64,000 bases of DNA from Raillietiella orientalis (taxonomy: Eukaryota), in assembly GCA_036172245.1 (NCBI GenBank), contig JAYWIR010000070.1:372001-436000 (forward strand), read 5' to 3'. A program made the translations under genes and the position numbers. Below are positions 21,508-50,046 of this stretch, in pieces (positions within the stretch are counted from its first letter, which is position 1; each line of letters begins with the position of its first letter). Under the pieces are notes generated by a model. The model saw only the letters and a list, made by a program, of their open reading frames with translations. It was not told where the DNA came from and did not search any database.

Positions 21508-23350
21508 TTCACCCGGATTTCGCCGGGGCGTTTATTGAAACAATAAACTTTAACAAAGACGTGCAGTGGCTGGACCACTGCTCCAGCCAAGCACGAAGAA
21601 ACACAGAGCCTTCCGGGTCACCGGTTCGCAGACCGGTACGGTCCACCACGGCAGCAGGGGGAAGGGGGAAAAAACAAAAAACAAAACAAAAAAGAAAAGA
21701 AAAGTTGGGAGGGTAAGGAAAGGGATCACAGTTGCTGGTGGGGCCTTTGCATCCTTTGCAGGATGCCGGCAAGCTCCTTCTGTATTCCTGAATCCAGGTG
21801 GGGCCATCGGGACGCCCTCCTTAGGAACTGGGAGGCTGGCTGGATGGCACCCTGGTCGCGTTGTCCTCCCGTAGCCTTGCTCCAGGCGCTGACGATCCCG
21901 CGTAGGCAGCACAAAGCTGCTAACGAGGCCGCAGGCCGAAGGGCGTCGGCAACGAAGAGGGCTTTCAGAGCGTCCCTGGGGTTGCCGCAGGGGATTCCGA
22001 TGGCCGCGGCAAAGCGGAACCAAAGGGGTCGAAGGGCAACACAATCCACTAGCAGGTGGGGGAGGGACTCCATTCCCCACACCTGACACAATTGGGGTTC
22101 ACCGCTTCCCAGGTCCAGTGGTGTCGGAGGGAGTTGCAGGGGAGTCCCGAGTGCTGCAACAGGAGAGCCAACTCCTGCCATTTTAAAGGGAGGGTGGAGG
22201 TGTTCATAAGTAACGGGGCCACTTCAGACGTTCAATGGGAACGTCGAGCAGCACGACCCAGTGCACCACAACTCTGGAACAAGTGCCGACATTCGGAACT
22301 GGAGATGAAGCTCCAGCCGTTCCAATGTCAGGAGGCCGAGACCACCGTCCCGACGCAGAGCGCACAAGTCCTTTAAGTGGACTCGGGCCCTCCCGTTGCC
22401 CCAAAAAACGATACGAAGGGGGTCCTTCGTCCGCTTTTTTATCCTCTCTGTAGGGGGTCAAACAAAAGGCAGAGGTCGGAGGAGAGGAGCCGCGAACGTG
22501 TTCCAAACCGCGGCCCGTTCAAGCAGGAAAAACTTGCCGCCTCGGAACGGGCCGATCGCCGTCTCTACTTCCTGGAGGCAGCCGGACCATGCTTCCGCAG
22601 GGGAGTAGTCCCCCGACGGCACACCAAGGTACTTGAAGTACCTCACCGTGAGGATCCCCAAACGGACCCAGTCCTGCTGCCTGCCCACGCCGCACCAATT
22701 GGTATGACGGACGACTTCGCCCTGTTCACCGTAAGTACGGTTCCCCGATGCAGCAGGTCGAAGAACTCCTCGACCGTTGAAGCCGGGGTGGACATAGGGA
22801 GCAGCAGCAGAAGGTCGTCCGCGTACGCTGAAACGGCAGGCGTACCGGCACAGTCGTGCGGCAGGTGCGCAGAGTTTCCCTGTACGCTCTCAGTACGAAC
22901 TCAAAGTAGGTACTGAAGAGCAAGGGGCTCAGGCTCTCCCTGCCGTATCCCACGCCGCACCGGCACGCCGCGCACGGTCTGCCCGCTGAAAGAAACGTTG
23001 ATGAGCGCGTCGCGCCAGCAGGAGCGCAGATAGGCCACTAATGAGGCCGGAAAGCCTAAGCGTTCCAGAAGGAGATTCTGGTCGACGCAATCGAATGCTT
23101 TGCGCAAGTCGAGTGCGACCGCAAGGGCTCCCTCCCCCACTCGACCATCTGAACCTTTGCCGGCGCACGCAACGGAATTCCGGCTGCGCACTAAGCTCCT
23201 TTCATGTTGGAGCTCTAGCCAGGTGTAAGCGTGGAACAGGTTCGCCTCCATGCTTCGCCCGGGAACAGCATATGTCTGTTGCGGGCTGATGAAGATGTTT
23301 GCAACCCGTCCCAGACGCTCTGCCTAAGCCTTAGCCAGCAACATGGCGTG
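21508..23350 (-). mobile_element. Element B: lineage II, intact 3' end plus internally deleted ORF2 (RT and C-terminus)
   Basis: LDLRKAFD, YADD, KYLGVP and ESLPHLLVDC motifs. Colinear with E but roughly 0.5 kb shorter. AATAAA-hairpin terminus at 21508-21536. Confidence 0.9.
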
Positions 23351-23351
23351 C

Positions 23352-25502
23352 GGACGTGTTTTTTCCGCGATCCTCTGCGCCTGTTGTAAAGCGTTCCTTT
23401 TCGTTAGTGTTTGTGTGTGGAGCATCTGCGGTGTCCAATGGCAGAAATGCCTGAGGACACCGCAATGGAAGTCGGCAAGGGAGAGGATTGTTCCTCTTTC
23501 CAGCCCATAGAGATGAGGCAACCGCCCCCACGGAGACGAGGCAACCGCCTTCTTGAAAAAAGGGGCAACCGCATTCTTGGATCCTTCCTAGGCAATGACG
23601 AATACCTGGAGCGCCGTGACTACAGCACCATCCCCTGAAGCCATTGCCTAACAGTGTGCCTACCGGGATCAAGGGTATAAACCATCCTTGATTTATAAGG
23701 TAGGCAACCTTTTTTTGGAGAACACCGCTCGTAACCTTGAAAGAGAGTTACAGCGGCTGAATGTCGAAGAGGAAGGCCTGGAAGGTCTCTCCGTGATGAG
23801 TGGGGGCCAGCGGGTGAAGCTGACTTGCAAAGATGCAAGTCTGGCTCAGCGCCTGTTGAACACTTCCATCACGCTGGAAGGCCGAAAGGTCTTCCCTGTA
23901 ACGGAGGATCGCTCTATTGTTGCACACCTAACCTGTGTAACTCTTCTCATGACCAAAGCTGGCGTGCAGGAAGAGTTGAAAAACCATAACACGGTGCACG
24001 CGCTCTGGACCAAGCCGAACGTCTTCCAAACATACGGAAGACTGTTCAGTGGCATGGCTGCAGCTCGTGTGACCGTCCACGAAAACGGTGGGCTGCCCCA
24101 CAAACTCGACGTCGGCAACGAGGTCGTCGACGTCTGGTACGTGGGCAAGCCCAAGTACTGTGGGCAGTGTGATGCAACAGGACACCTGAAAAAACGGTGT
24201 TCTCACATCCAGTGTTTCCACTGCAAGGAGAAGGGCCACCTACGGAAAGTGTGCCCAAAGCGGAAACCTCCAGCGCCCTCTGCCTTGAAAAAAGGTAAGG
24301 GGAAACGCTTGGAGAAAACAAGCAAGCCCAAAGAAGCAAAGGAAAGGCCAAGCAAAAAGCCAGAGTCCGAATGCTCCCAGCAAACGGCGGGCGAGAAAAA
24401 TCCCGACGACGCTGGTTACAGCGAGGACTGGCGGACAGCGAAGCCGAAAAGCAAAAAAATCCGAAAAACCGAAGAACCGACAGCGGAACCCGTGACAACT
24501 CCTTTAAATAGAAGGCAACGCCACGCTTTGCTCCGCGAATGTTCGGTCGCTTTGTAGCGAGTAGAGATCCCCGAGACCTCCACCGGGGGAGATATCCCCC
24601 GCCTCGTTGACGCCGAAGCCGCGATCGCGGAAGGAGAACCCTCTGTGCAAACAGAGGGGGAGCCGAGCGACGCGGTCGCCGCAATCGAGGACGCCGCCTT
24701 CCAACAGGCGGCGGAAGAGCTCGCGGCCGAGCTCGCGGAAAGTGAGAACGGCGCGCGAAAAGCCTTGCCAAGCTCGGCCGCGGCCAGGGCACCTCCAACA
24801 GGTGACCACGAACCGGATGCCGGAAGTGCGTCCTCCTCCGCGGAGGCGCCTCCGAAGAAGACTGGACGGAAGTCCAAGAATCCAAAGATGTGCATCCCAA
24901 GAAAGAAGGAGGGGGACGCACCGGCAGCCGAAGGGGAAGCCGGTAGCGTAGGAACGGAGGGAGGGATTTTCCCACCCTGCGCTACCGAGCAGCTGGCGAC
25001 CCCCATGGAGGAGGGGGAGAAGGTAAGTCATTGCCGCCCACTTCCAAAGGTGGAACCTGCTGAGGAGATAGCCATGGAGGAGGGGGAGCAGACAGTTGAC
25101 AACCGCTCCCCCCTGCCGTCCAACGCAGCCGACGATTCGGCCCCCATGGAAGAGAGGGAGCAGGTGCGTGAAACTCGCCCCCTTCCACCGTTGCGGTCCA
25201 CTGAGCAATCGGCGCCCATGGAGGAGGGAGAACCGGTGCGCGGTGCCCCCATTCCTCCATCTGTCCCGCCCGACCAGGTGGCGGGCGCCCCATTGTCACT
25301 TTCGCAGGAATAACACCAGGGTTCGCCTGTCGCCGCCGATTACGCGTGGCCTGCTGGAACGTAAACGTGCTGCGCGACGACGGCAACAGACGGGACACGG
25401 CCGCCACCCTGCGTGACTTCGACCTGGCGCTCCTGCAGGAGATCCACGTGATCACCGCGCAGAACGCCCAGGAGATCGAGACGATCGCAGGGGGTCAACT
25501 GT
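23352..25502 (+). mobile_element. Element C: lineage I-related, intact 5' end, disrupted ORF1 (23438-25313) and start of APE
   Basis: Starts GGACGTG. Knuckles CGQCDATGHLKKRC and CFHCKEKGHLRKVC, PMEEGE repeats, then WNVN..QEIH. Interrupted at GGQL by D1. Confidence 0.92.
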
Positions 25503-27588
25503 TTATCACCCGGGTGCGCCGGAGCGTTTATTGTAAACTATCGGGGGACAGGGTTCATGGACAAAGGAGAAAACAAGAGACGAAGGGGGTGGGATCCCCG
25601 ACACGCAGGTCGGTATGCCGAAAGTCCGTAACGGGAGGGAAGGGACCACAAATACACTACTATAAAAAAATTAAATAAAAATATGGAAGGCAGGGGACAG
25701 GGGTCTTTATCGAGTCCGTTCCTTCCTTTCAAAACCGGCGATGGATGCCGGCGATCTCTCTCCTAACGCCCTGTGGAAGATGGCCCACTCGGCAGCCGAC
25801 GACATGATTGTGCTGGCTAATCCGGTGAATGACGAAGGATGGCCAGCTTCTCCAACCCTCGGTGGGCCTTGTCGATGGCGCGGGTGCAACACACGGTTGC
25901 AACGACAGCACCCAAGACAGGCCGCCTGGCGAGAAGAAGCGGCGCATGAAGTCCCTCGCGGTGTCCCCCTGGTGCAGGAGAGCTCATGCCAGCCCCCGTC
26001 AAAGTCCAAGAAGGGCACCGCAGTCTAGGAGCAGGTCAGCGAGCGTTTCCACTTTCTCGCACCGCTTACAGTTTGGGGAGACAACTCCCCCGGAAACACG
26101 GTTCGTCCGCTGGTTGGAGTGAAAACCCCAATGCACCAGCATGAAGACGTCCTGCTTTCACGAAAGGGGGTACACAGAAGCGTACAAACAGGAGGGAGGG
26201 ACCACAAGTTCTTCGGGGGGCACACTTAAGTGTTCACTCCACCGAAGGGGTCCCTTCGGAACGTGGCGAGGCGTGGCGGCGTCTGCCAGCTCGCAAGTCC
26301 TCTAGCCGCCAATAGGTCGTGTTGTTCCTGCAATGGTGCAGGCGACCTCCCATCTCGCCGGTTCGCAGCTGTCATCTCTTGCCCTGAGGGCTGACAGTAC
26401 GTCGGCGAGCAGCGTGACGGCCAGGCGGGTCCACTTCTCCTGGCTGTTGCACACTTCATCCACCGTGCAGTACGGGGAGAGTTGAGCGCAACGGAGTTCC
26501 AGGAGGGAGACATCCTGGTACTTTGCCCAGCCATGCAACGGTTCCTGCCGCCAGGCTTGAAAGTTCGTTGGGCGGCAGGAGATCCATTCCTAGGCTTCCA
26601 GGAGCCGGTAGAGCGGTTTCAAGGAAAAACCAAAGCTTCTCGTGGCGCGCTCCGCGTGCGGCCGCAGCTACAGAAGTCCATCGCTGCCTGTGCAGCGCCG
26701 CAGAAGCAGGCGCGCGGGTGCGCACCACGGGGTGGAACAAAGGTTGGCGCACAGGGCCAACATCCGAAGCTGCACCTGCAGCTCGATTCTCTCCAGCGTC
26801 AGGATGCCTAAGCCAGCATCCCGACGCGGAGCCGCCAAGTCTTTGAGGCAGATCCTGGACCTCGCAGGTCCCCACAGAGCGTTCCTCAACAGGCTGTGCG
26901 CCTGGAGCTTAGCCGATTAGAGGGTCGGGCAAACAAGAAGCAGGAGGCGCAACAGGGGGGCAACGAAGGTGTTCCATATCGTGGCCCGCACCGGCAGGAC
27001 GAACCTGCCATGGTGGAACGGGCTCAGGGAATTCGGAGCCTTCCGAAGGCAATCCGACCACACTTCCACTGGGCTGATGATCCCCAGCGGAACGCCCAGA
27101 TATTGGGTGGTCGAAGCGTTTGGGATCCCCAGGCGGATCCAGTCAGACTGCCCCTCCCACGCCGCAACAATAGGTACGCCCACGCTCTTGCTCCGGTTTA
27201 AACTCAAGCCCGCTCCCCGGCGAATCAGCTCGAAGAAATCCTCAAGAATGATTGCCGGGGTGGTGATATGTAAGAGCAAAAGGAGGTCGTCAGCATAGGC
27301 TGCCACGAACTGCGTTCCTGGACAAGAGCTCGGCAGGGTGGCCAGCGTCAGCCTGTTCGCTATCAGCACCAACTCAAAGAAGATGCTGAAAAGCAACGGG
27401 CTTAAGCTGTCGCCCTGCCTAATGCCCCGCCGCACCGGCACGCCGTACACGTGGCAGCCGCTCAAAGAGATGGAGATGAGCGCGTAAAGCCAGCAAGCGC
27501 GCAAATACGCCACGAGGTGCACCAAGAGACCAAGACGTTCCAGGAGCTCCAGGAGGAGATCCTGATTTACGCAGTCCAGCGCCTTGCG
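25503..27588 (-). mobile_element. Element D1: lineage III, 3' end and RT/C-terminal half of ORF2 (frameshifted)
   Basis: Closely similar to D2 60015-62106 including the 3'UTR; RQGDSLSP and YADD motifs. Confidence 0.93.
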
Positions 27589-27606
27589 TGCTCCAGGGTA
27601 GACGTG
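27571..27606 (+). promoter_or_regulatory. Putative Inr (GCAGTC, in target DNA) plus DPE (AGACGTG, in element H)
   Basis: A at 27573 and motif at 27600 give +1/+28 spacing. Confidence 0.55.
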
Positions 27607-28786
27607 TTTTCTCGGTGCTCCTCGTGCCAGGAAGTCTCCCCCAGTGCAAGCGTCGTGTGGTTCGGTGGTCAATCAGGCAGCGATGCCTGACGCGACCACC
27701 AGGGATGGCAAGGGGGCAGCGGCAACTCCGCCCCCAGAGGCGATGGAGAGCCAGGGGACGGCGGCAACGTCGCCCCTGGAGGCGATGGAGGTGGGGGCAT
27801 GCGCCCCCACAAAATCGGTCCCCGCTGCAGCGCGGGCGTGGAGCGCCCTTGTGTCGGCGCCATCGCCTGCAGCCGCGACGGAATTGTCGGCCTATGTAGA
27901 GGAGGGGTACAACCCCTCATTGTTCTACAAGGTAGGCAATCTCTATTCTTCAGAGAGCGCGCGCGCCTTTTCGAAGGGCATGCGCGCTGTTGATGTGAAA
28001 GAGGAGGAGCTCAGCGCTATGACCATCTGCAGCGGGGGTCAGTACGTTGAGGTCATCTGCAAGCATGCAGAGCTGGCCCAACGACTGCTCAAAACCCCTG
28101 TTGTGATGGGAACGCGCAGGCTCCTCCCCACTACGGCGGACCGCAGCATGGTGGTCCACCTGTTAGGTGTTACCGCGCGGAAGCGCAAGGAACAGGTTCG
28201 CGCCGCGTTGGAGGAATACGGAACGGTCCACGCGCAGTGGAAGAAAGTTAGTCCTTTCGAGGACTACACGGGGCTGCAACACGGCCTCACTGCTGCGCGC
28301 GTGAACGTTCGGGAGGGCTGCACTCTTCCCCACAAACTGGTGGTGGAAGGCGAAACCGTCGACCTCTGGTATGTGGGGAAGCCGAAATACTGTGGCTTCT
28401 GCAATACGTCGGGCCACCTCAAAAAGAGGTGTCCCAATGTGCAGTGCCAAGTATGCGGCACAATGGGCCACACGAGGGAGGTGTGCCCAAAAGCAGCAGT
28501 GCGGGTGGTTTCCAAGAGAAACCTTAAAAAACGCGCCCGGCTTCTGCAGAAAAGGCTGGCGGCGAAAGCTGCCGCGAAGGCTGTGCCACCCGCGCCCAAG
28601 GCCCAGGCCGCACCCGAGACCTCGGCGAACAACGCCGAACAAGTCGAGAAAACAAGCCAGGAGCCTGGGTGGCAGGTGGCTACGGCCAAAAAATCAAAGA
28701 AGGAGAGGAGGATGGAGAAAAAGCTCGCGTACCGCCAGAAAAAACAGCAGGCAAGCGAGCAAATTAAAGAATGCAGCGTTGTCGTT
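27589..28786 (+). mobile_element. Element H part 1: lineage II, intact 5' end and ORF1 N-terminal part (ATG 27683)
   Basis: AGACGTG at 27600. ORF1 is homologous to F ORF1 with two CCHC knuckles and is cut at ECSVVV by J. Confidence 0.92.
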
Positions 28787-31700
28787 TATTACCCGGTTGC
28801 ACCTGGACGTTTATTATAATATCAACTGAGAACTGTGTTCCCAGGCAAGGAGAACAGAAAATGGGGAGTAGATTTCCCGGAACGCAGTCCGGGCACACTG
28901 AGAGTTCGGAACGGGAGGGGGTGGGACAATAAATAAATAAATTGGGTGGGAGGGCGGGGACAGGGGTACACAGTCTAACCGTTCCTATTCTCAGAACCGG
29001 CGGTGAATGCCGCCGATCTCCGTCCTCACTTCTGCTCCAAGATGTGGCCACCCGGCAGCCATTTGCAGGTTGCAGGCTGCGGTGTCGGGGACCGATGTTG
29101 GGACTGCTCGCATCTGCAATACGTGGCGAGCCCTGACAATGGCGCGGACGCAGCAGATGATTGCGATGACCGCTCCAAGAGAAAGTCCGCCACGCGTGTA
29201 GAAGCGACGCATCCAATCCAGTGCGGTGTATCCAGGGTGCAGGAGCGCTGAAGACAGCCGCTGCCACAGCTCCTGGAGGGCACCGCACTCAAACAGCAAA
29301 TGCGGAAGCGAATCCACAGCTCCGCATTTGGCACAGTTCGGGGACGCAACTCCCCCGGAAATCAGGTGCGCCCGCTGGTTGCAGTACAAACCCCAATGCA
29401 CCAGCAGAAAGCGTCCTGCTTCCACCGAAGGGGGAAGAGAGTAGCGTCCAAACACGCCGAAGGGACCACAAGTTCATCGGTGGGCACCCCGAGGAGCTCA
29501 CTCCACCGGAGAAGCCCCTTTGCAAGAATGCGAGGTGTGGCAGCGTCTGCCACTTCGCAAGTCCGCCAGCCGCCCAGCAGTCGGGTTTCGCCTGCGATTT
29601 CGAAAGTGATCTCCCACCTCGCCGGCAGGTCACTGTCATCTCGCACCATCAGTGCACACAGTGCTTCGGCGAGTGGCGTAGCGACTAGGCGTGTCCACTG
29701 GTCCTGGTTTTCCAGCACCTCCCCCACTGGACAGTATGGGGAAAGTTTCACGCAACGGAGTTCCAAACGGGACACATCCTGTTGCGCTGCCCAGGACGAT
29801 AAGGCTTCCTGCCTCCAGGCGTTGAAGTTCGTCGGCCGGCAGGAGATCCACTCATGCTTTCCCAGAAGAGTGGCGAGCTGCTTCAAAGGGAAGCCGAATC
29901 CTCTCTGGGCGCGCTCCGTGCGCACATGCAACGAACGTAGTCCGTCGCCACCCGTGCTGCGCCGCAGCAGCAGCCGCGCTGGAGCACACCAGGGAGTAGT
30001 CCAGAGCTGCGTACAAAGTGCCAGCATGCGGAACTGCACTAGCAGTCCGATCCGCTCCAGCGTCAGGATGCCCAATCCTGCATCCCGCCGAGGAGCCGCC
30101 AAGTCCTTCAGGCGTATCCTGGACCTCGCCGGTCCCCACAGGGCGTTACGCAACAGGCGTTGCGCCCGGCGCTTAGCCGAGTAGGGAGGGGGACAAACAA
30201 AAAAGAGGGGACGGAGGAGGGGGGCAACGAAAATGTTTCACACGAAACCCGTTCCAACAGGAGAAACCTGCCGCCTTAGAACGGGCCCAGAGCAGTCTCG
30301 GCCTTGTGAAGGCAGTCCGACCACGCTTCTGCTGGACAGAAGGCGCCCAAGGGAACGACGAGGTACTTCAAGCACCTGCCCGTGGGGATCCCCAGGCAAA
30401 TCCAGTCGGACTGCACCTCTCACGTAGAGCCAACCGTTACAACGGTTGATTTCGTCCTGTTGACGCTCAGGCCCGCTCCCCGACGAATGAGCTCGAAGAA
30501 GTCCTCGAGCCTGGACGCCGGGGTGGACATGGGCAGCAGCAGGAGAAGGTCGTCAGCATAGGCGGCCACGGACGGTGTTCCCGAACAGGAGCTCGGCAGG
30601 TTGACCAGCGTCAGCCTGTACCTTCTCAGCACCAACTCAAAGAAGATGCTGAAGAGCAGGGGGCTTGAGCTGTCTCCCTGCCTGATACCCCGCCGTATGG
30701 GAATGCCGTACACGTGGCGCCCGCTGAAAGAGATACAGCATAACGCGTGGCGCCAGCAGGAGCGCAAGTAGGCGATGAGGTGCGTCGGGAGGCCTAGGCG
30801 TCCCAGAAGCTCCAGAAGGAGGTCCTGGTTTACGCTGTCGAACGCTTTGCAGAGATCGACGGCGACCGCTAAGGCTCCCGGGGTTCCATCGTGCCTTGAA
30901 CACCGCCGCTTTCCTTTGGCAGCGGCGATTTCGGCTGCCTGGCTCTGCTGCGCCACGCGCTGCTGCAACTCGAACCATGTTCGCGCGAAGAAGAGATTCG
31001 CGTCCATGGACCGCCCCGGAACAGCATACGTCTGCTCCGGACTTACCAAGGACTCTGCGATTCTCCCCAGGCGCGCACCCATAGCCTGGAGAACAACTTG
31101 ACGTCCGAATTGTCAGTGTTTAGTGTGCACTTCACTGGGAGAACCCAGTGTTTCCCTACAGTAAACATCTTTTTTAAAGACTTCATTATCTAATTTTTGT
31201 AAAAAATTAGAATAATAAATGCCCCGGCATATCCATGTGACAAACTTCGGATGCAGCCGAGCATTCCTGGCCAGCGTCATCGAGGAGACAAGCCGCTCCA
31301 GACTGCTAAACCTGGGGCTCGACCCTGGCCTTATACTCCGCCAGACGCCGGACGTCCGAGCATCGTGAAAAGGTACGCGCCTGCAGATAGGATCTGCTGT
31401 TCGCGACACCCTCCCTGAAGCCGCGGGGAAGCAGGTGCAAGGGGAACCGGCAGCAGAACTCGCGGACCGATCTTTTCAGATCGTCCCAGTCCTCGAGTTC
31501 ACAGATGGCGAAGCCACGGAGGTGTTGGCGGAGATGCTCCGCCGCCTCCGAATTGCTAAGCCAGTCGGCCGGCAACCTCCAGACATTCATCGGAGGCCCT
31601 TTGCCAGGCGGGAGGAGCTCGAACTCCAGTCTAGGATGATCCGAAATCGCGGACAGCAGGCGCCCTCTCCGACCTACTCGTAAGAGCAGGTGTTCAACGA

Positions 31701-34323: not shown

Positions 34324-34534
34324 GTGCACCGTCGTCGTCGAGCGTATTCCCGACGCTGCGAAAAAGAACTCGCCGCTACCGACGACAATCCCTCTGTTGA
34401 CTCTGTCAACAGCGAGGAGAGCGAGCCGGCGGCGGCGTCCGTCATCGACACCACCATCGATGACGTAGCCTTCGCGCGAGCCTCGGAGGAGCTGGCAGCC
34501 TCGTTGCAGCCAGCCCCCTCCGCGGCCAGTAGGA
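34324..34534 (+). mobile_element. Element H part 2: continuation of lineage II ORF1 after J
   Basis: Resumes CTVVVERIP..AAASVIDTTIDDVAFARASEELAASLQP, homologous to F ORF1 51180-51390. Confidence 0.88.
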
Positions 34535-34620
34535 GGACGTGTTTTTCCTTCACTCCCCAAAGAGTAGTAGGAAAGCGCTTTTTCTTCTGTGTGGTGTTTT
34601 GTGTACATCGTCGGTGTCCA

Positions 34621-39300: not shown

Positions 39301-39967
39301 GAAGCCGAGGTGGCAAGTCACCTGCCAGATCGCAGGCAGGGAGAAGATGTTAAGCAGCTGGACCACAGGAGAACTGGCGGACGCCACGACCCCGAGCGTC
39401 CAGCCGCGTGGATTAATGAGATGGGGCGAGCTGCTCGCCATCCCTACGGATGTGCTGAAGTGGCCCCCGGTACTAAAGGAATCCAGGATCCTGCCCCTTA
39501 AGTGGCAAGAGTCGGCGTTGCTATTGCTGCACTGGGGTTTACCCTGCAACGCACGCCGCTTCCACTGGACAAGGGGAGCTGTGGACCCTGAGTGTGTCAG
39601 GTGCGGAGAGCGGGAATCGCTCTCCCACCTTATTGTGGACTGTGCTGCCATCCGACCCCTCTGGGAACGGTTCGGGGCGACCCTAGGGCTCCCTACGAGC
39701 AGCACCCCCAGAGACGTTCTTCGGCCCCTCTTCGTGAAGGACGCACTGCAGCCAGCCGCAGCCATCGCAGCCTTGTGCTGTGTCCGTGGCATCGTGGCTG
39801 CATGGAGCGACGCCAATAACGAAGGAGTGGGTCCACACGCGAGGGATGTCATCCCATACGCCCAACGCTTCATGCGGAGAGCTGCCGGATGGCCCCAACT
39901 GGGGAATATACGGACGGACCTCGAGGGCTTCCTTCAACGGATGGGCCCTCCTCACAGCGCTCAGTGA
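36371..39967 (+). pseudogene. a1 ORF2: APE endonuclease - reverse transcriptase - CCHC, ~1199 codons in one frame with two premature stops (37172, 37301)
   Basis: WNVNGL, QEIH, YAP, GDFN, IDH, SDH; KAPGEDG, WRPIT, DLHKAFD, RQGDSLSP, YADD, KYLG, GGLGL; CVRCGERESLSHLIVDC. Confidence 0.93.
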
Positions 39968-40148
39968 TCCCTTCCCTGCCCTCCAACTTCTTTTTGTCTG
40001 TTTATTTTTTTTATTTTTCTTTTTGTTTTATCCCCATCCCCCTTCGCTGCTGAGGAACGCTACGCTGGGCTGCGTCCCGGTGTCCCGGCAGGTCCAGTGC
40101 ATATGGCTGTGAGCGGGGCCTAGTACCGCGGATGTAGAGTTTTTTAAA

Positions 40149-40179
40149 AATAAACGCCCCGGGCGTACCCGGGTGTAAA
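40149..40179 (+). terminator. Conserved element 3' terminus: AATAAA plus GC hairpin (representative of nine copies)
   Basis: aataaacgcCCCGGGcgtaCCCGGGtgtaaa; equivalents at 21508, 25503, 28787, 31214, 42832, 47013, 52648 and 62077. Confidence 0.75.
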
Positions 40180-40197
40180 CCTCCACGGCCAACTGGA

Positions 40198-42830
40198 GGA
40201 CGTGTTTTTCCTTTACTCTTCAAGAGTAGTAGGAAAGCGCTTTCTTCTGTGTGGTGTTTAGTGTACATCGTCGGTGTCCAATGGCAACGACGCCAGAGGA
40301 CACCGCGATGGAGGTGGGAGTGGGGGAGGCTAGTTCGCCCCCACAGCCTACTGGAGCAGGGGCAGCCGCCCCGGAATCATCCCCGGCCACGCCGAGGACA
40401 TGGAGCGCCATGGTGGCCGCGCCCAGCGCAGAAGCCATGGCGGAGATGGCCGCATACAAGGCCTCCGGGTACAAGCCATCGCTTGTCTACCAGGTAGGCA
40501 ACTTGTTCGACGGCCGGACAGCGCGCGCCTTCAGCAAAGCGTTGAAGGACGCGAATGTCACTGAGAAGGATCTGGACGGCCTTTGCGTCCTCAGCGGCGG
40601 GCAGCGGGTCGAGGTGGTCTGCAAAGATGTCACCTTGGCTCACCGCCTAATCCATGCGCCGCTGAACGTAGACGGCCGCAAGATCCTGCCAGTATCAATG
40701 GACCGCTCCGTGGTGGTCCACATGACTGGCATCACCAGCCGCATGACGCGGTCAGCGGTTGGTGAGGACTCGCGAAAGTACGGTGAGGTGCACGCACTGT
40801 GGCCGAAACCCTCCATTTTCGACGGCTTCGATAGCCTTTTTGGCGGGCAGGCTGCATCGCGGGTCACCGTAAGGGAGAATTGTGGGCGTCCCCACAAACT
40901 ACAGGTGGCGCAAGAAAACGTCGACCTGTGGTATGTAGGGAAGCCCCGGTATTGCGGGCATTGTGATACCGTGGGACACCTACGTAAAAGGTGTCCCAAT
41001 ATACAATGCCATTTGTGCGGGGAGCGGGGCCACGTTCGGCGCGTGTGCCCCAAACGCCCCACCCCGGTTCCCCCTGCCGCGAAAAAAGCGCAGGGGATAC
41101 GCGCATCAAAGGTCTCTAGACCTGAAGTGAAAAAGGGCCAGCACAAGATGCCAACACCTCAACATCCGGCGCGTAAGCCGGAGGATAAACCTTCTGAAAC
41201 GGTGGAAGGCGAAGAGGGATGGCGGCTTGTAGAGGCCAGAAAGCCTAAGAAACTCCCATTCGCGGAGAGCAAAGAGCACAAGACGGCCGGTAAGCCGAAA
41301 AAACCCGGTACGCGCTCGAAAACTCTGCGCGAGTGCACGGTGGCACTGGAACGAATCGTCGTTCCCGAGATTGCCACCCGGAGCGTCGATCCTCCCCTTG
41401 CCGTTTCCGCTGCGCCCGAGCCTCGCGACGGCGAACCCTCCGTTTACACAGAGGGTGAGCCGCGCGACATAGCGGCGGTCGAAGCCGCGGACGCCGCGTT
41501 CGCACAGGCGGCGGAGGAGCTCGCGGTCACGCTGGCCGAGCGTGAGAACCCCTCGCGCAAGGCCGTGCGAAGGCCGGCTCCGGCGAAGAAGGCCTTCACA
41601 GGTGAGTTAGACCTGGGGGCCGAAAGTACATCCTCCTCCTCGGAGGCACCCCCCAAGAAGTCGGGACGCAAGTCCCAGAAGCCCAGGAGGCGCCTTCCCT
41701 CCACCAGCCAGGAGAAGAAGGAAGCCGTCGACAGCATGGCAAATTCGGAGGAGGAATTCCCACGCTCGGAAGCCGTCGATCCGGCCACCCCCATGGAGGA
41801 GGCTGAACAGGGGGGTGAAGTCCCCCCTGCAGGCGCAGACCCTGAACAGCCCGCCCCCATGGAGGAGGGCGAACAGGTAGGCGCGACCCCACCTGTGGGT
41901 GACCCGCTCGACGTACAGTTTCCTATGGAGGAGGGGGACCAGGTGCCTTCAGCACCTGACCCCCCTCCTCCACCTAGCGTGACGCCCCAGCAGGTTGCGG
42001 ACGCCGCACTGCCACCTTCCCAGGAGTAACACCTGGGCTCGCCAGTCGCCGTCGGATTCGCGCCGCCTGTTGGAATGTCAACGGGCTGCGCGACGACGGT
42101 AACAGGCGAGATACAGCCGACACCCTGCGGGAGTTCGACCTGGCCCTGTTGCAGGAGATCCACGTGATCACCGCGGCAGACGTCCAGGAGATCGAGACGA
42201 TCGCGGGGGGTCGGCTGTACTGGCAATGCGGCATCCGCAACACCTGCGCGGTCGGGTTCTTCGTGAAGGCGGCCATCGACGATGCCGTGAAGGGCGCGCG
42301 CTTCGATGACGACGGTCGGGTCGGTCAGCTGACTCTCGGCTGGTCCGACTCGATCGATCTGAACGTCACGAATGTGTACGCCCCAACCGGTCAAAAGGGA
42401 TACAGCAACCGTATCAGGCTGCTTGAATCCCTGAAGCGCGACTGGTTGGCGAACACGAGCGTGAGGAAAGCTCACCTGATAGCGGGAGATTTCAATCTCC
42501 GCCTGCTAACAATTGAACCGGAAACACAAGTGAAGGCGATGAACGAGTTGTGCGCCGCCATGCGTGCGCGCAACTTGTTCGCGGGTGAGAGGGGAATAGT
42601 CCGCAGCATCGACCACGTCTTCCTCGACGCTGACCTGTGTTCACGGGTCGGCAAACGAGGAAGGGTTGCGTCAACGTTGTCGGACCATTCCCGGTTAATT
42701 TTCGAGATGCGGCCTCGCGACAAAGGACCGCCATCCAGGGACTGGCGTCTGCCGGGGGACTGGACGCGACTCTCAGGTGCGAAGGAACACCTTCGCGAAT
42801 ACCTGAGAGGCGTCACGCTCCGGAATCTCC
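40198..42830 (+). mobile_element. Element a2: lineage I, tandem to a1, interrupted after the APE domain by E
   Basis: Near-identical to a1 34535-37170; cut at VTLRNL. Confidence 0.94.
40281..42029 (+). CDS. a2 ORF1, intact (582 aa) gag-like nucleic-acid-binding protein
   Basis: Open frame from ATG 40281; knuckles CGHCDTVGHLRKRC and CHLCGERGHVRRVC; acidic PMEEGE repeats. Confidence 0.9.
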   Translation: MATTPEDTAMEVGVGEASSPPQPTGAGAAAPESSPATPRTWSAMVAAPSAEAMAEMAAYKASGYKPSLVYQVGNLFDGRTARAFSKALKDANVTEKDLDGLCVLSGGQRVEVVCKDVTLAHRLIHAPLNVDGRKILPVSMDRSVVVHMTGITSRMTRSAVGEDSRKYGEVHALWPKPSIFDGFDSLFGGQAASRVTVRENCGRPHKLQVAQENVDLWYVGKPRYCGHCDTVGHLRKRCPNIQCHLCGERGHVRRVCPKRPTPVPPAAKKAQGIRASKVSRPEVKKGQHKMPTPQHPARKPEDKPSETVEGEEGWRLVEARKPKKLPFAESKEHKTAGKPKKPGTRSKTLRECTVALERIVVPEIATRSVDPPLAVSAAPEPRDGEPSVYTEGEPRDIAAVEAADAAFAQAAEELAVTLAERENPSRKAVRRPAPAKKAFTGELDLGAESTSSSSEAPPKKSGRKSQKPRRRLPSTSQEKKEAVDSMANSEEEFPRSEAVDPATPMEEAEQGGEVPPAGADPEQPAPMEEGEQVGATPPVGDPLDVQFPMEEGDQVPSAPDPPPPPSVTPQQVADAALPPSQE

Positions 42831-42831
42831 A

Positions 42832-45800
42832 TTGAAACCCGGGTGCGCCGGGACGTTTATTCTTACGAATAAACCTATACAATCTGTGACTGGACCAGTA
42901 GTCCAGCCACGCCCTGGAAAGATATAGCTTGCCGGGCTACCGATGCGCAAACCGCCGCGGTCGACCTCGGCAGCAGAGGGGAGGGGGAACGGAACAAAAA
43001 GAAAACAAAAAATAAACAAAAATCAGGGAGGGAGCAGGAAGGGATCACAGTCTGCTGGGAGGGTTCGTCATCCTCTGGAGGATGCCGGCAAGCTGTTTCT
43101 GCGTGTGTGGTTCCAGATGGGGCCATCGCGTCGCCATCCTGAGGAAACGAGCGGCATACACGTTGGCAACCCTGTCGCTGGTTCCTCCCGTCGCTTTGCT
43201 CCATGCCACGACGATCCCGCGTAGGCAGCACAGGGCTGAAAGCTAGGCCGCTGGAGGCAGGGCGTCACGGACGGAGAGGGGGCGCAAAGCGTCTCTGGGG
43301 TCACCTCCGTGGATCCCCAGGGCTGCGGCAAAACGTTCCCACAAGGGACGGAGGGCAACACAATCCACTAACAGGTGGGGGAGTTATTCCCTCTCCCTGC
43401 ACCTGACACAATTAGGGTTGACACCCTCCCGCGTCCAGTGGTGTCGGCGGGCGTTGCAAGGAAGCCCCCAATGCAACACCAGCAGTGCCGACTGTTGCCA
43501 CTTCATGGGGGGGGTGCGCGAGTCCATGAGCACCGGGGGCCAATCGAGATGTTCCTCTGGAACATCCAGTAGCTCTTTCCAGCGCAACAGTCCATTTGGG
43601 GTGGTCCTCGGGGTCGCAGCGTTGGTGAGCTGACCTGTTCTCCAATCCCCGATCTTCTTTGCCCTGCTGGCGATCTTGACAGTAACCTCCCATTGTGCCG
43701 CGACGTCGCTGCCCAGATGTTCCCGTAGGGTAGGCAGTACCGCAGCAAGGGAGGTTCTTTGTGCCCACGCTCTCCTTCGAGGATTCTCGATGATTTCTCG
43801 GAGCGTGCGGCGGGCATGCGGCCCGAACAGAGCTATTCGCTCGTGTTGCGGGCTCTGCTCCTGAATCATCGCCCACGTGCGGACGGTTTCCTGCAACCAG
43901 GCAAGACCGTTCGCGGGGCGTACGAGGATCCGCGCCGAGTTGTTCTTCACGAGCTTGGCCGCCCTCCGAAGTTGAAGTCCGCAGTGGCAGATGGGGCTTC
44001 GGAGTGCAAAGTAGGACGAGAGTCCCGCATTGCCGGTGGCCCGCTCGACGAGGAGACGTGCAGGGAGCCACCAAGGGGTGCACCAATTTTCTGCCATAAA
44101 GGCAACAACTCGGAACTGGAGCTGTAGCTCCAGCCGCTCCAACGTCAGGAGGCAGAGACCACCATCCCGACGAGGAGCGCACAAGTCCGAAAGACGGACT
44201 CGGGGCCTCCCTCTGCCCCAAAGGGCGATCCTCAGGAGGTCCTTCGTCCTCTTCTTTGACTCCGCTGAGGGAGGGCAAACAAAAAACAAGGGGCGGAGGA
44301 GGGGGGCCGCAAATGCGTTCGACGCCGCGGCCCGTTCATGCAGGAAGAAGACGCCGTCCTGGAACGGGCCGATCGCCGCCTGAACCTTCTGAAGGCAGCC
44401 GGACCACGCTTCCGCAGGGGAGTAATCCCCCAACGGCACACCAAGGTACTTGAAATACCTCACCGTGGGGATCCCCAAACGGACCCAGTCCTGCTGCTCT
44501 GCCCACGCCGCTCCGACTGGCACTACGGACGACTTCGCCCTGTTCATCGTCAGTCCTGTTCCACGACTCAGCAGGTCGAAGAAGTCCTCGACCGCCGAGG
44601 CCGGGGTGGACATAGGCAGCAGCAGCAGAAGATCGTCCGCGTACGCCGAAACCGCAGGCGTACCGGGGCAATCGCACGGCAGGTGCGCCAGAGTCTCCCT
44701 GTAAGCTCTCAGCATTAATTCGAAAAAGGCGCTAAAGAGCAGGGGGCTCAGGCTGTCTCCCTGCCGTATGGCGCGTCGCACCGGTACTCCGTGCACGGTT
44801 CGCCCGCTGAAGAGAACATTAATGAGCGCGTCGCGCCAGCTGGAGCGCAGGTAGGCCAACAAAGAGGCCGGGAATCCCAAGCGTTCTAGAAGCTCCAGCA
44901 GGAGATTCTGGTCGACGCTGTCGAATGCTTTACGCAATCGACATCGACCGCAAGGGCTCCCTTCCCCACCCGACCGTTCCGTCTCCCGCTAACAGACGCA
45001 CCGTAATTCCGGCTGCTCAATAAGTCCCTTCCTTGTTGGAGCTCTAACCATGTGGAAGCGTGGAACAGGTTCGCCTCCATGCTCCGCCCGAGAACAGCAT
45101 AAGTCTGTTCCGGGCTGATGAAGATGTTGGCAACCCGTCCCAGACGCTCTGCCCACATCTTGGCTATCAACTTAACGTCCTCATTCACTATTGTGATGGG
45201 ACGCCAGCTGTTCACGCTCCTCAGGTCTCCACCCTTAGGGAGGAGCCGCACCTTTGCCGAACGAAACGAGCCGGGAACGTCACCTGTTTCGCGTATCAGC
45301 AAGATGAGTTGCTGTACCAGGGGGGTAAGCTCAGCCGCGAAAGTTTGGTAAAACTCCGCGGGCAGGCCGTCCTTCCCTCGAGCTTTCCGCCTCTTGAGCT
45401 TTCCGATGGCCGAGAGGATCTCGTCCATCGTGAAAGGCTCGTCGAGGCTTCTTTTCTCCTCCTCCCCGATCGCTGGAGCACCTTCCGGGAGCAGAAATCG
45501 TGAGACGTCTCGCTCCGGAGGCGCCCTGGCGTACAGGGAGGAGTAAAATTTCTTCACAATCCCGCGCTTCTGAGCAGGAGCCGAGTGTTCCCGGCCCTGG
45601 TCGTCCAGCAAGCTAGCCGACCCGGATTGCCAGGCTTGCCTCTTGGCTCCCGCTCGATACTCTGCTAACCTGCGCATGTCGGGGGTTCTCGCGTAACTTC
45701 GGGCCTGAAGATAGCACCTTTCGTTACGCGGCTTCTCCCCAAATCCCGCAGGTAGGCGATGCAGGGGGAACTGGTCGCAGAACTCCTGGACCGACCGCTT

Positions 45801-47012
45801 GAAGCGGTCCCAGTCCTGAAGTGTCTGCATCCTGAAGCTCCGAATAAACGCACGGAGGTGCTCCGCCGAGCCGGGAAACTTCAGCCAGTCCCCTGGCAGA
45901 CGCCACGCTGACGAGGGGGGCCCCCGTGGCGCGGATGGATCTCGAGGACTAGCGGGCGATGGTCGAACAGCTCGCACGGTAACTTGCCGCGCCTGCCCAC
46001 GCGAGGGCACATGTGCTCGTCAAGAAACACGTGGTGAATGCTGTTTTCCATCCGCGGTGCACTGGCCAACAAATTACTGGTGTGCACCGCCATGCACTCC
46101 TCGTTGTCCAGGTCACGCTCGGGTTTCTGTCCATCTGGTTTCAGGCGAACGTTAAAATCGCCTGCAACAGGATGGGCATCCCGCACGCCTGCTTTGGTCA
46201 GCCAGTCTCTACGGAGAGCAAGGAAAATCACTTTCCTCTCCCTCCTAGTCATCAGGTCTGCGCCGCTCGGTGCGTACACGTTCGTTACGATCAGATCGAT
46301 CGAGTCGGACCACCTGAGAGTCAGCTGGCCGACACCACCGTCATCGTCGAACCGCACGTTATGAGATGCGGCCTCGACGGATGGCCGAAGCAGGTAGGCG
46401 ACACCGCAACTTTTCGCTATCCCACACCTGTACCATAGTCGCCCTCCGGAGATCCGTCCGATCTCTTCCGCTTGTTCTGCAGAGATCACGTGGATCTCCT
46501 ACAGCAGCGCAAGGTCGTAGGGCTCTAGAAGGGCGGATATGTCTCGTCTCCTGCCGGCGTCTGTCATGCCGTTCACGTTCCAAACGGCGATGCGCAGACG
46601 ACGGCGGGAGGAGATTCCCGGCATTACTGCTGCGAAGATTAAGATGTGGAAGAGCCCGCCTCTTGCGAGGCAGGCGGGATGTCCATGGGGGTTTCGGCCT
46701 TTTCAGGCACCTGAGGCACCTGTTCGGCCTCCTCCCCCATCTAGAACCCTCCATCCGTGTCATTGCGTGGGAGTCTCTCGGGCGACGGGTCCCGAGAGTT
46801 TCCCACGCTCATGGCACCCTCGCTTGCGGAAGCCATCTCTTCCCCTTCGACGGGGGAGACAAGCTTCCTTGGCTTTGTGGACTCACGTCCAGCCTTCTTG
46901 CGGGGTGCCGTGGAAACGGAGGCTGCGCTTCCAGCCTCCACCTCGGGGTCGGAAGTGGGGGACTCCTGAGGGGAGGCCGGACGCCTTACGGCCTTCTTGC
47001 CAGCCTTGGAGG
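42832..47012 (-). mobile_element. Element E: lineage II, 3' end, frameshifted ORF2 (46624-43045) and ORF1 C-terminus
   Basis: TAATG overlap at 46626-46622; APE, RT and CVRCRERE motifs. Cut in ORF1 at SKAGKK by a3. Confidence 0.93.
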
Positions 47013-50000
47013 TTTACACCCGGGTACGCCCGGGGCGTTTATTGGTAAAACTCTACATCGGCGGTACAAGGCCCCGCTCACGGCCATATGCACTGGACCT
47101 GCCAGGACGCCGGGACGCAGCCCAGCGTAGCGTTCCTCAGCAGCGAAGAGGGATGGGGATAAAACAAAAAGAAAAATAAAAAATAAACAGACAAAAAAAG
47201 AAGTTGGAGGGCAGGGTTGGAGGATCACTAAACGCTGTGAGGAGGGCCCATCCGTTGAAGGCAGCCCTCGAGGTCCGTCCGTATATTCCCCAGTTGGGTC
47301 CATCCGGCAGCTCTCCGCATGAAGCGTTGGGTGTATGGGATGACATCCCTCGCGTGTGGACCCACTCCTTCGTTATTGGCGTCGCTCCATGCCGCCACGA
47401 CGCCACGGACACAGTACAAGGCTGCGATGGCTGCGTCTGGCTGCAGTGCGTCCTTCACGAAGAGGGGCCGAAGAACGTCTCTGGGGGTGCTGCCCGTAGG
47501 GAGCCCGAGGGTCGCCCCGAACCGTTCCCAGAGGGGTCGGATGGCAGCACAGTTCACAATAAGCTGGGAGAGCGATTCCCGCTCTCCGCACCTGAAACAC
47601 TCAGGATCCACAGCTCCCCTTGTCCAGTGAAAGCGGCGTGCGTTGCAGGGTAAACCCCAGTGCGGCAGTAGCAACGCCGACTCTTGCCACTTAAGGGGCA
47701 GGATCCTGGATTCCTTCAGTACCGGGGGCCACTTCAGCACATCCGTAGGGATGGCGAGCAGCTCGCCCCATCTCATCAATCCACGAGGCTGGACGCTCGG
47801 GGTCGTGACGTCCGCCAGTTCTCCTGTGGTCCAGCCGCTCAACATCTTCTCCCTGCCTGCGATCTGGCAGGTGACTTGCCACCTCGGCTTCTGGCGATCC
47901 TGAAGCGCCCTCAGGAGGTAGGGCATCGCCGTAGCAAGGCAAGTCGTCCACGCTCACCTGCGACTCCGGGGAAATTCGAGTATTTCCCGCAGGATGCGGT
48001 TGGCGTATGGGCGGATTCGCAGGCAGTTCACATGGTTTTCACTCCTCCGGTTCTGCTTAGCCCATGTGCCAGCAGACTCCTCCAACCAGGCGGAGGAGTT
48101 GGCGGGGCCAGAAACCATCCAACCGTTCGTCTTCGCCAAGGCTGCTATGCGTATGAGCATAAGGCCTCATCTTCGGATCTTCCGGCCAGGACACAGAAGA
48201 AACGACGCGAATCCTTCGCATCGGGACACACGCCTGCAGAGGAGGCGGGCCGGAACGCACCAAGGGGTGCTCCACATCTTCGCTGCGATGGCGAGGGTTC
48301 GCATCCGCAGCTGGATTTCCTCGCGCTCCAGCGTCAGGAGGCCAAGGCCGCCGTCCAGACGCGGAACGCACAAATCCTTCAGAGGGACTCGGGGCCTCCC
48401 CTTGCTTCAAAGGGCTATGCGGAGGAGGTCCTTTGTCCTCTTTTTGCATTCTCTGGGGGCGGGGCAAACAAAAAGCAAGAAGCGGAGGATGGGGGCCGCA
48501 AAAGCGTTCCAAACCGCGGCCCGTTCCGGCAAGTGAAACTTGCCTTCCAGGAACGGGCCGATCGCCGTCTCGACTTTTTGGAGGCAGCTGGACCACGCTT
48601 CCGCAGGTGAGTAGTCCCCCAACAGCACATCAAGGTACTTCAGGCACCTCGCCGTGGGTATCCCCAGACGGACCAAGTCCTGCTGCCCTGCCCACGCCGC
48701 ACCTACTGGCACCACCGACGACTTCGCCCTGTTGACCTGCAGTCCGGTCCCGCGGATGAGCAGATCGAAGAAGTCTCCGACCGCCTTCGCCGGGGTGGAC
48801 ATAGGTAACAGAAGCAGAAGGTCGTCGGCATAGGCTGCTACGGCGGGCGTGCCGGGACACGAGCTCGGCAAGGAGGCCAAAGGCACCCTGTAGGCCTTCA
48901 GCACCAACTCAAAGTAGGTGCTGAAGAGCAGGGGACTGAGGCTATCACCCTGCCTGGTGCCCCGCCGCACCGGCACGCCATACAACTTCTGAATACTGAA
49001 AGAGATGGAGATAATCGCATTCCGCCAGCAAGAGCGCAGGTAGGTAATCAAGGAGGGTGGGAAGCCCATGCGACTTAGGAGCTCCAACAAAAGCTCCTGG
49101 TCAACACAGTCGAACGCCTTATGGAGATCGACTGCGAGCGCTAAGGCCCCCTTCCCCGCCCGGGAGTCCATTCCCTGCCCTGCTGGCGGCCCCAAAGTGG
49201 GGTTGCCGATTTTTCCTTTCTTTTCCTTTTGACACCTCTGCGGGTGCATCCATGTGCTCGCGAAGAAGAGGTTGGCATCCATACTTCGCCCGGGAACATC
49301 ATATGTCTGCTCCGGGCTAATAATGGATTCTGCCTCCTGCCCCAGACGCGAAGCCGATAGCCCGGCAACCAACTTGGCGTCCGTATTCACAATCGTGATC
49401 GGACGCCAGTTGTTCAAATTCCTAAGGTCTCCCCCTTTCGGAAGGAGCCTCACTCTGGCTGACCGAAACGAGGCGGGAACATCGCTTCGTCTCGGATCAG
49501 CCTTGTCAGCTGAAGCAGCAGGGGTGCCAGCTCTTCCGCGAAGCTCTGATAGAACTCCGCGGGCAAGCCGTCTTCCCCTGGAGCTTTCCGCCTCTTGAGC
49601 CTTTTGATACCGGCGAGAATTTCGGCTGTGGTAAAAGGCTCATCGAGGCTTAACGACTTCTCCTCCCCTATTGCCGCGGCACCATCCAAAAGCAAGAGCC
49701 GAGAGGCATCTTGATCCGGAAGCGCCCTGGCGTAAAGGGAGGAATAATAACTCCGCACGAGATGCCGTACCGACGCCGGGGACGAACATTCCCGGCCCTG
49801 GTCGTCCAGCAAGCTGGCCGACCCGGATTGCCAGGCTTGGCGTTCGTCCCCGGCACGGTACTCGGCCAGGCGACGGACATTAGGGGTTCTCTCGTACCTA
49901 CGAGCCTGTAAATAGGCCCGATGGTTGCGAGCACCCTCGCCGAATCCGGGGGGCAGGCGATCCAGGAGGAACTGCTTGCAGAACTCCCGGACCGATTCCT

Positions 50001-50034
50001 TAAAAAGGTCCCAGTCCTGGAGATTCCGGAGCGT
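47013..50034 (-). mobile_element. Element a3: lineage I, 3' end and ORF2 downstream of APE (disrupted)
   Basis: Near-identical to a1 37157-40179 in reverse orientation. Confidence 0.94.
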
Positions 50035-50046
50035 CGAGCGGACGTG
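50011..50046 (+). promoter_or_regulatory. Putative Inr (CCAGTC, in target DNA) plus DPE (GGACGTG, in element F) core promoter
   Basis: A at 50013 and motif at 50040 give +1/+28 spacing, matching the Drosophila Inr TCAKTY / DPE RGWCGTG geometry. Function inferred. Confidence 0.6.

Follow-up and report, generated by a model that had tools for sequence, protein, structure and literature searches.

Here, we describe a nest of long interspersed nuclear elements (LINEs) in the genome of Raillietiella orientalis, within a stretch of 64,000 nucleotides of contig JAYWIR010000070.1 (assembly GCA_036172245.1, positions 372,001 to 436,000 of the forward strand), hereafter the window. From 20877 to 64000, the window contains only diverged copies of one LINE family, which lie on both strands and share 65-95% identity in self-BLAST comparisons. 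They are LINEs with an apurinic/apyrimidinic (APE)-type endonuclease and a reverse transcriptase (RT), about 5.66 kb at full length. GC content is 0.34-0.52 in the first 20 kb of the window and 0.57-0.64 from about 20.9 kb to the end. At the 5' junctions of these copies, we find a modest anomaly in the flanking target sequence, together with an initiator-like geometry in some of them. These features tentatively point to element RNAs that begin in flanking target DNA and carry a short copy of it.

The nest was resolved by self-BLAST, together with blastn and nhmmer searches that used one complete copy (REF) as query. The copies form a chain in which every element is opened by the next: F1 (+), hostC (-), C (+), copy 4 (-), H (+), then J (-), REF (+) and K (+) as a group, followed by E (-), copy 11 (-), copy 12 (+), G with copy 15 (-), and D2 (+). 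J, REF, and D2 alone lie complete within the window, and for most insertion events only one side falls within it. The copies, with the part of REF to which each corresponds, are as follows:

20877-21540, plus strand: F1, REF 2906-3576
21503-23351, minus strand: hostC, REF 3244-5648
23352-25504, plus strand: C, REF 1-2028
25501-27587, minus strand: copy 4, REF 3536-5647
27600-28786 and 34324-34534, plus strand: H, REF about 1-1360
28787-34323, minus strand: J, complete relative to REF
34535-40197, plus strand: REF, complete, 5663 nucleotides, the reference copy
40198-42831, plus strand: K, REF 1-2639
42832-46995, minus strand: E, REF 1364-5645
47002-50034, minus strand: copy 11, REF 2623-5656
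50040-52650, plus strand: copy 12, REF 1-2722
52642-56282, minus strand: G, REF 2007-5651
56293-62108, plus strand: D2, complete relative to REF
62104-63988, minus strand: copy 15, REF 145-2030, the continuation of G

REF has an open reading frame 1 (ORF1; 34749-36371) with two CCHC knuckles, visible in translation as two CX2CX4HX4C motifs and scored by Pfam as zf-CCHC at 19.7 and 18.8 bits, slightly below the cut-off of 20.8. Its endonuclease ORF (36491-37174) matches Exo_endo_phos (PF03372) at 36491-37171 with 31.1 bits, against a cut-off of 24.5. The same family is matched in copy 12 (51760-52374; 51.6 bits) and, under the cut-off, in K (42149-42832; 22.4 bits). The RT ORF of REF spans 37379-39967 (RVT_1, 79.4 bits), and RVT_1 was detected in 8 of the 18 ORFs scanned. 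Among 5.8 billion proteins, the closest is an unnamed metagenome protein with 67% identity. The remaining relatives are at most 30% identical and carry APE and RT domains, often with zf-RVT, as L1-type elements do. The best named ones (24-30% identity) are annotated L1 or RT proteins with PF03372 and PF00078 (plus PF13966), annotations that make membership in the L1 clade only a lead. A metagenome search for related loci with an alignment of six RT sequences kept 80 loci at 21-36% identity, none of which belongs to the LINE family of the nest.

All copies share a 3' end composed of AATAAA, a GC-rich hairpin (e.g., CCCGGGCGTACCCGGG), and a short (A/T)AAAC tail without poly(A); in REF, the hairpin is followed by GTAAAC. 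These ends lie at:

40130-40197 and 62070-62108, plus strand; 28787-28850, 25501-25560, 21510-21570, 42832-42900, 47002-47070, and 52646-52710, minus strand: 3' ends

The 3' junctions show 1-5 bases of microhomology with the target. Target-site duplications flank the complete copies and are identical at 13/13 positions for D2, 12/16 for J, and 13/17 for REF. D2, J, and REF each inserted as a whole element with a duplication, so that neither twin priming nor joining of two complementary DNAs (cDNAs) is needed as the origin of junctions between antisense hosts and sense inserts. REF and K are 94.65% identical (5.3% divergence), the ORFs of J are broken, and ORF1 of H is still open over 381 codons.

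Insertions recur at a few places within host elements. The sites are labelled S1 to S7; of these, S1, S3, and S4 were each used by two to three copies at matching boundaries:

REF about 3536, antisense: S1, with the same 16 nucleotides, AATCGAACGCCTTGCG, bracketed by hostC in F1 (3' junction) and by H in copy 4 (5' junction)
REF about 2020, antisense: S2, with D2 in G/copy 15 and copy 4 in C
REF about 2623, antisense: S3, with (T)GGAGATTCCGGAGCGT bracketed by E in K (3' junction) and by copy 12 in copy 11 (5' junction)
REF about 1364, sense: S4, with REF and K in H and copy 11 in E
ORF1 motif EC[ST]VVVERIP, antisense: S5, with J in H
RT motif NTDAKL, antisense: S6, with C in hostC and, within 5 nucleotides, the 5' junction of a short fragment in J
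About 85 nucleotides from S3: S7, with G in copy 12

Since E and copy 12 are only 76% identical over their overlap (REF 1364-2722), their insertions at S3 were separate events, and a single event followed by inversion, which would pair K/E with copies 11 and 12, was rejected. A single event followed by inversion is left open for S1 (F1/hostC with copy 4/H). S1 and S2, with duplications of 16 and 13 nucleotides, respectively, share a bipartite motif that could be what the endonuclease or the ORF2 protein reads:

About 27565-27600, 21485-21515, and 60010-60040 (S1), and about 56262-56295 and 62100-62130 (S2): CAGTCGA[A/C]C, then GATCG 8-11 nucleotides on

Sites also match insert lineage loosely, with three REF-type copies at S4 and two D2-type copies at S2. 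The short fragment in J lies on the plus strand (31107-31244, about 138 nucleotides) and ends AATAAATGCCCCGG...GTGACAAA, resembling a D2-type 3' end. About 55-60 nucleotides of host are gone there, a target deletion rather than a duplication.

All seven visible 5' ends (C, H, J, REF, K, copy 12, and D2) begin with the box RGACGTGY, that is, [A/G]GACGTG[T/C]. This 8-mer occurs 12 times in the window, 7 of them at element starts. The box is the sole block conserved across the 5' regions of the seven copies. Upstream of it nothing is conserved, and the sequence there aligns with the local host, in register in all seven copies apart from extra nucleotides. Downstream promoter elements (DPEs) have a documented function in animals, and every one of the seven boxes matches the DPE consensus from Drosophila LINEs, RGWCGTKY, at 8/8 positions. 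The boxes in the six copies other than REF are:

23352-23359, plus strand: box of C, GGACGTGT
27600-27607, plus strand: box of H, AGACGTGT
34323 down to 34316, minus strand: box of J, GGACGTGT
40198-40205, plus strand: box of K, GGACGTGT, directly preceded by the target-like stretch a2
50040-50047, plus strand: box of copy 12, GGACGTGT
56293-56300, plus strand: box of D2, GGACGTGC

In two of the seven copies, H (27573) and copy 12 (50013), an initiator-like CAGTCC has its A exactly 27 nucleotides before the box. REF has GCAGCC at the same offset (34508), a looser fit. This stretch is made up differently in the two exact cases: 16 host-like and 11 non-host nucleotides in H, but 22 and 5 in copy 12, so the equal total is not a by-product of equal duplications. 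At the frequency of CAGTCC in the nest (4.4e-4 per position), the probability of finding it in two of seven copies at a preset offset is 4e-6, or 1.3e-4 if 33 offsets are allowed.

The 5' junctions were then compared with close relatives of their hosts by counting differences in 27-nucleotide windows stepping away from each junction. The junction features are:

23325-23351, plus strand: upstream of C, the last 27 nucleotides of hostC, homologous to S6 (antisense RT motif region)
27573-27588, plus strand: upstream of H, 16 host-like nucleotides of S1, AGTCCAGCGCCTTGCG, starting at the A of CAGTCC
27589-27599, plus strand: 11 extra nucleotides before the box of H, TGCTCCAGGGT, not host by comparison with seven other copies
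28771-28786, minus strand: 3'-side target copy of J, AACGACAACGCTGCAT on the J strand, CSVVV in ORF1 of H
34339 down to 34324, minus strand: 5'-side target copy of J, GACGACGACGGTGCAC, CTVVV in ORF1 of H
34508-34534, plus strand: upstream of REF, 27 nucleotides in host H (S4, sense), starting at the A of GCAGCC
34518-34534, plus strand: a1, the last 17 nucleotides before REF, CTCCGCGGCCAGTAGGA
40181-40197, plus strand: a2, CTCCACGGCCAACTGGA, directly between the 3' end of REF and the box of K
50013-50047, plus strand: junction of copy 12, with 22 nucleotides of host (S3) from the A of CAGTCC, five extra nucleotides CGAGC (50035-50039), and the box
56270-56300, plus strand: junction of D2, with one duplication copy ACAGTCGACCCCC (56270-56282), 10 extra nucleotides TCCATTGTTC, and the box; the second duplication copy is at 62107-62119

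Every sequence string and position quoted in a preliminary description of this DNA was found in place. At the junction of C, hostC 23301-23324 is identical to E 45130-45153 over 24 nucleotides, and from 23325 onward 11-12 of the 27 nucleotides up to the box differ. Successive windows away from the junction contain 12, 1, 2, 2, 3, 5, 6, 10, and 4 differences, that is, 11-12/27 at the junction versus 8/108 in the next four windows. The junction value is reached by 18 of the 1033 sliding 27-nucleotide windows in the 1059-nucleotide alignment of hostC and E (empirical p 0.017).

The two target copies of J differ at 4 of 16 positions, mostly at codon third positions, as previously noted. Read as codons, they are TGC AGC GTT GTC GTT versus TGC ACC GTC GTC GTC. 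In the frame of H ORF1, three differences, one of them in the base before TGC, are synonymous changes at third positions, and the fourth exchanges S and T. Because the enclosing H has ORF1 open over those 381 codons, heavy decay of the J duplication is unlikely, although this is a soft bound. At S4, a1 (CTCCGCGGCCAGTAGGA) and a2 (CTCCACGGCCAACTGGA) represent two different alleles, with a2 a third allele beside that of E (CTCCAAGGCTGGCAAGA). The four differences reported between a1 and a2 were confirmed (13/17 identical over the 17-nucleotide stretch; 17-18 positions were compared). Divergence between a1 and a2 since insertion is bounded at 5.3%, because it cannot exceed that between REF and K; at 5% divergence, at least 4 differences in 17 positions have a probability of 0.009.

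No such anomaly is seen on the other side of the elements. Six 3' flanks (hostC/F1, E/K, copy 11/E, G/copy 12, D2/copy 15, and J/H-left) gave P = 0.43-0.92 (combined 0.975), and none is elevated. The anomaly of the 5' flanks is thus real but modest, is confined to 5' sides, and is carried by C, REF/K, and J. The other 5' flanks are set out below.

We tentatively favor a reading to which we would not give an even chance: that these elements are site-preferring LINEs of one diverged family, whose RNAs start upstream of the box with a short target-like leader that helps 5' joining. The box, the geometry in two to three copies, the mismatch pattern, and the recurring sites are observed. From these we infer a transcription start, a carry-over, and an annealing step. 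Family members would insert into other copies of their own family at preferred sites. Full-length RNA would probably start not at the RGACGTGY box but about 17-27 nucleotides upstream, in DNA flanking the parent copy, with the box acting as a DPE and the target supplying the initiator-like CAGTCC at +1. Such an RNA would bear a short copy of the insertion site of its parent, plus any odd nucleotides fixed at the earlier junction. When such an RNA serves a new insertion at the same site in a different family member, its cDNA would anneal by its end to the upstream target strand, and the 5'-side target copy would start as a heteroduplex, a patchwork of local and parental alleles. The leader would be a helper of 5' joining and not the chooser of a target.

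A short target-derived RNA leader would leave what is seen, namely an anomaly on the 5' side and an initiator- and DPE-like geometry in two to three of seven copies. The position of a2, between the 3' end of REF and the box of K, would result if the template were switched from a K RNA bearing a 17-nucleotide leader to a REF RNA, or equally if a REF RNA carried a 17-nucleotide trailer. The seven junctions of this one window support the leader modestly. Of the preliminary proposal of an RNA-carried target copy, it is this short leader that is retained, at the tentative level just given.

Several observations weigh against the leader. The geometry seen in H, copy 12, and, loosely, REF does not extend to C, J, K, and D2, which have no initiator-like sequence at -27; in D2, CAGTC sits at -21 instead, and in K the target-like stretch is just 17 nucleotides. 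The offset was picked, in the preliminary description, from these same data, a sample of seven junctions in one window. If CAGTC, which S1, S2, and S3 all contain, is counted toward the target preference and the length of the extra nucleotides is taken as random, the coincidence has an estimated probability of about 0.01-0.08. The remaining flanks are also ordinary or nearly so. H differs from its D2 homologue, as stated earlier (3/18 between 27571-27588 and 60017-60034 on the minus strand), and its windows (copy 4 versus D2) contain 4, 2, 3, 3, 2, 0, 2, 1, and 3 differences; the first, 4/27 against a background of 7.4%, is not significant (P = 0.14). Copy 12 (copy 11 versus REF: 2, 3, 3, 3, 0, 1, 2, 0, 2) starts at background level (2/27, P = 0.53). 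D2 has 4 or 3 differences in its first window (G versus REF or K; P = 0.38-0.77) and a duplication that is perfect, 13/13, a counterpoint already acknowledged in the preliminary description. Combined by Fisher's method, the four 5' flanks of C, H, copy 12, and D2 yield only p = 0.053. In the alignment of hostC and E, two further patches are as divergent as the junction window. The variant 27 nucleotides of C alter the conserved RT motif TDAKL, so they look like a decayed rather than a working allele. Beside REF, H-right and copy 12 differ at 9 positions in the first window and at 3-9 in six others, so that the junction is not distinct.

The same observations feed the strongest alternative, under which there is no leader and RNA starts at the box. 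The oddities would then reflect decay of duplications, variable host stretches, filler or non-templated nucleotides at the 5' junction, and chance in a small sample. We regard this as rather unlikely, though well worth retaining. It accommodates the ordinary copy 12 and D2, the non-significant H, the other hostC-E windows with 10 differences, and the equal divergence of H-right and copy 12 away from REF. J, its ORFs being broken, may also be old. Filler or non-templated nucleotides at the 5' junction occur in many LINEs, and the 5, 10, and 11 extra nucleotides between host and box are what imprecise 5' joining predicts. R2 elements with variable junctions likewise show extra junction nucleotides, by the account in PMC3774820. 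A source for the extra nucleotides was sought elsewhere in the window, where the best matches were no better than chance (an 11-mer with one mismatch is expected, by estimate, about once per 128 kb). Four points, however, speak for a leader and against its absence. a1 and a2 differ at 4/17 positions even though the divergence between REF and K caps decay at about 5% (P ~ 0.009). J lies within an H whose ORF1 is open, and 3/4 of its differences are synonymous. The anomaly is found at 5' flanks and at 0/6 of the 3' flanks. Finally, the recurrence of CAGTCC at -27 at two unrelated sites would be left as coincidence. Among the sequencing runs listed, one DNA run, and no RNA run, matches this stretch, containing a fraction of 0.25 of the words sampled from it; 295 short contigs from that run over 23001-43000, mostly 90-99% alike, gave no junction information on leaders.

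A second alternative operates at the DNA level. Gene conversion or ectopic recombination between related inserts at the same site in different hosts could produce tracts that run from an insert into the homologous flank, and the repeated use of the same sites supplies the homology that this requires. The window holds a direct example: C 25250-25501, the 200-250 nucleotides beside the 3' end of copy 4, is about 0.9 identical to the copy 15 flank of D2 (62108-62359), which equals the identity between copy 4 and D2, whereas the rest of C is only about 0.65 identical to copy 15. This example lies at a 3' junction, however, and is about 10 times longer than the 5' patches. It could alternatively be a 3' read-through RNA integrated in register or a duplicated junction. 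The other 3' flanks show nothing, the short 5' patches in C, J, and REF/K end within 27 nucleotides, and the geometry of box and CAGTCC is unexplained. We consider conversion an unlikely source of the 5' anomaly, but a live rival.

Least probable are the readings in which the leader acts on the next insertion. The preliminary description proposed that a leader would span the first-strand nick and could guide the choice of the next target, so that site preference would be inherited through RNA and not protein. At least six discrete, dissimilar sites were used, several of them repeatedly (S3 by E and copy 12; S1 by hostC and H; S4 by REF, K, and copy 11). Site use loosely tracks lineage, and upstream sequence is in register with the local host in all seven copies, extra nucleotides aside. 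Nonetheless, target-primed reverse transcription begins at the 3' end of the RNA, on the far side of the duplication, and the first-strand nick thus lies at the other end of the element from any leader. We know of no step by which a 5' leader directs that nick. The motif shared by S1 and S2 (CAGTCGAMC...GATCG) is readable by an endonuclease or a DNA-binding domain, REF and K are of one lineage and yet have leaders that differ at 4/17 positions, which a faithfully inherited guide should not, and a single event, later duplicated, may underlie both D2-type cases. With no specific support, target choice by the leader is very improbable. We give equally little credence to the fuller scheme in which host initiator and DPE-like box together complete the promoter, a 27-nucleotide leader, copied in every RNA from its own insertion site, both closes the 5' junction and favors, for the next insertion, the homologous site of a different family member, and the RNA-inherited preference drifts or switches at imprecise junctions.

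An RNA with a short target-derived leader, as we tentatively favor, has partial parallels in known systems. In L1 5' transduction, transcripts that start in flanking DNA carry the flank to a new locus; such transductions are sporadic, variable in length, and land at unrelated sites. Here, in contrast, a short piece of fixed length would be carried, and it would share homology with the site at which it lands. R2 RNAs whose hepatitis delta virus (HDV)-like ribozyme cuts upstream in 28S sequence keep up to 36 nucleotides of it, most often from 28 bp upstream, according to Eickbush, Burke and Eickbush (2013; PMC3774820). The same paper postulates that a heteroduplex with the target primes second-strand synthesis and that junction variants then propagate with the element. 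As far as that account goes, the likeness is an RNA that keeps a short upstream target stretch, here a putative one deduced from DNA. The differences are that the 5' end would here be set by promoter geometry, that the endonuclease is APE-type and not restriction-like, and that the targets are several sites, mostly antisense, inside copies of the same family instead of one ribosomal RNA (rRNA) site. In the search for an HDV-like ribozyme, no Rfam family reached its gathering score anywhere in the window (divergent ribozymes may escape Rfam models), and there were just four weak, chance-level Rfam matches in 34300-35000. HDV-like P1 pairing of positions -27 to -21 with the first 250 nucleotides was matched by 112-500 of 500 shuffles in all seven copies, a search that divergent ribozymes can likewise escape.

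The promoter geometry resembles that of Drosophila LINEs, in which the DPE consensus A/G-G-A/T-C-G-T-G/T-C/T is described at about +29 to +36 of Doc, F, G, I, and jockey (PMC1636488). On that description, the 8/8 matches in seven copies and the A of CAGTCC at -27 in two of them would fit the canonical spacing within one base. In those Drosophila elements, however, the initiator and the spacer of about 28 nucleotides are described as conserved parts of the element, whereas here they are unconserved and homologous to the local host. The insertion of family members into one another and the GC-rich cluster recall, by description only, Zepp and ZeppL of green algae, L1-type LINEs that insert into existing copies and form nested GC-rich clusters (PMC8226300, PMC3446292). 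Zepp arrays are described as mostly 3' ends, through 5' truncation; this nest has seven full 5' ends and no poly(A). R1Bm (PMC1919474) is APE-type and is reported to have one 28S rDNA target, cut specifically on both strands by its endonuclease domain. It and other APE-type site-specific LINEs are like the present family in endonuclease type, defined target, and duplications, and, as far as they are described, unlike it in that several dissimilar sites are used here.

The arrangement of the nest is nearly linear, with about 12 elements each opened by the next and none closing within 43 kb, J, REF, and D2 excepted. This suggests that each insertion went into the most recently arrived copy; alternatively, what falls in the window may be just the left half of a much larger nest. 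Upstream of S1, most differences between copy 4 (27535-27590) and D2 (60017-60100, minus strand) have G in D2 and A in copy 4 (D2 GTGGCG and CCGGGAG, copy 4 GTAAAG and CCAAGAG), a pattern suggestive of decay biased toward transitions in the older copy. REF (34613-34650), K (40273-40310), and C (23430-23470) each have an inverted repeat, GGTGTCC...GGACACC, in the 5' leader before the start of ORF1 (34749 in REF). An ATG lies between its two arms, which could pair into a hairpin; when metagenomes were scanned with a pattern for the ORF1-start hairpin common to these three copies, 0 loci were returned. A 66-nucleotide tandem repeat at 36127-36286, in the C-terminal part of REF ORF1 (PMEEGEQ-type protein repeats), probably accounts for length differences among copies there.

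To the left of the nest, window positions 1-20800 have a GC content far below that of the nest. None of 10 ORFs in this flank has a Pfam family, and for the longest (9572-10378, 269 amino acids) no homologue was found. The flank also contains no tRNA and no Rfam family.

What is new here is a combination of known kinds: a LINE with site specificity, a putative leader derived from the target, and a nested cluster that targets itself. Should there be no leader, our finding would be an over-reading of seven junctions, and the region would still offer a clean case of a LINE nest that targets itself at recurrent sites. A real leader would be a second, independent route to the outcome of the R2 ribozyme, reached by promoter geometry instead of RNA cleavage. 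In that case, an APE-type element with several target sites inside its own family would obtain an RNA with a built-in copy of its target, which would explain precise 5' junctions and site-specific nests without an rRNA target. Whether such a target is read by protein or remembered by RNA would become directly testable by leader swaps.

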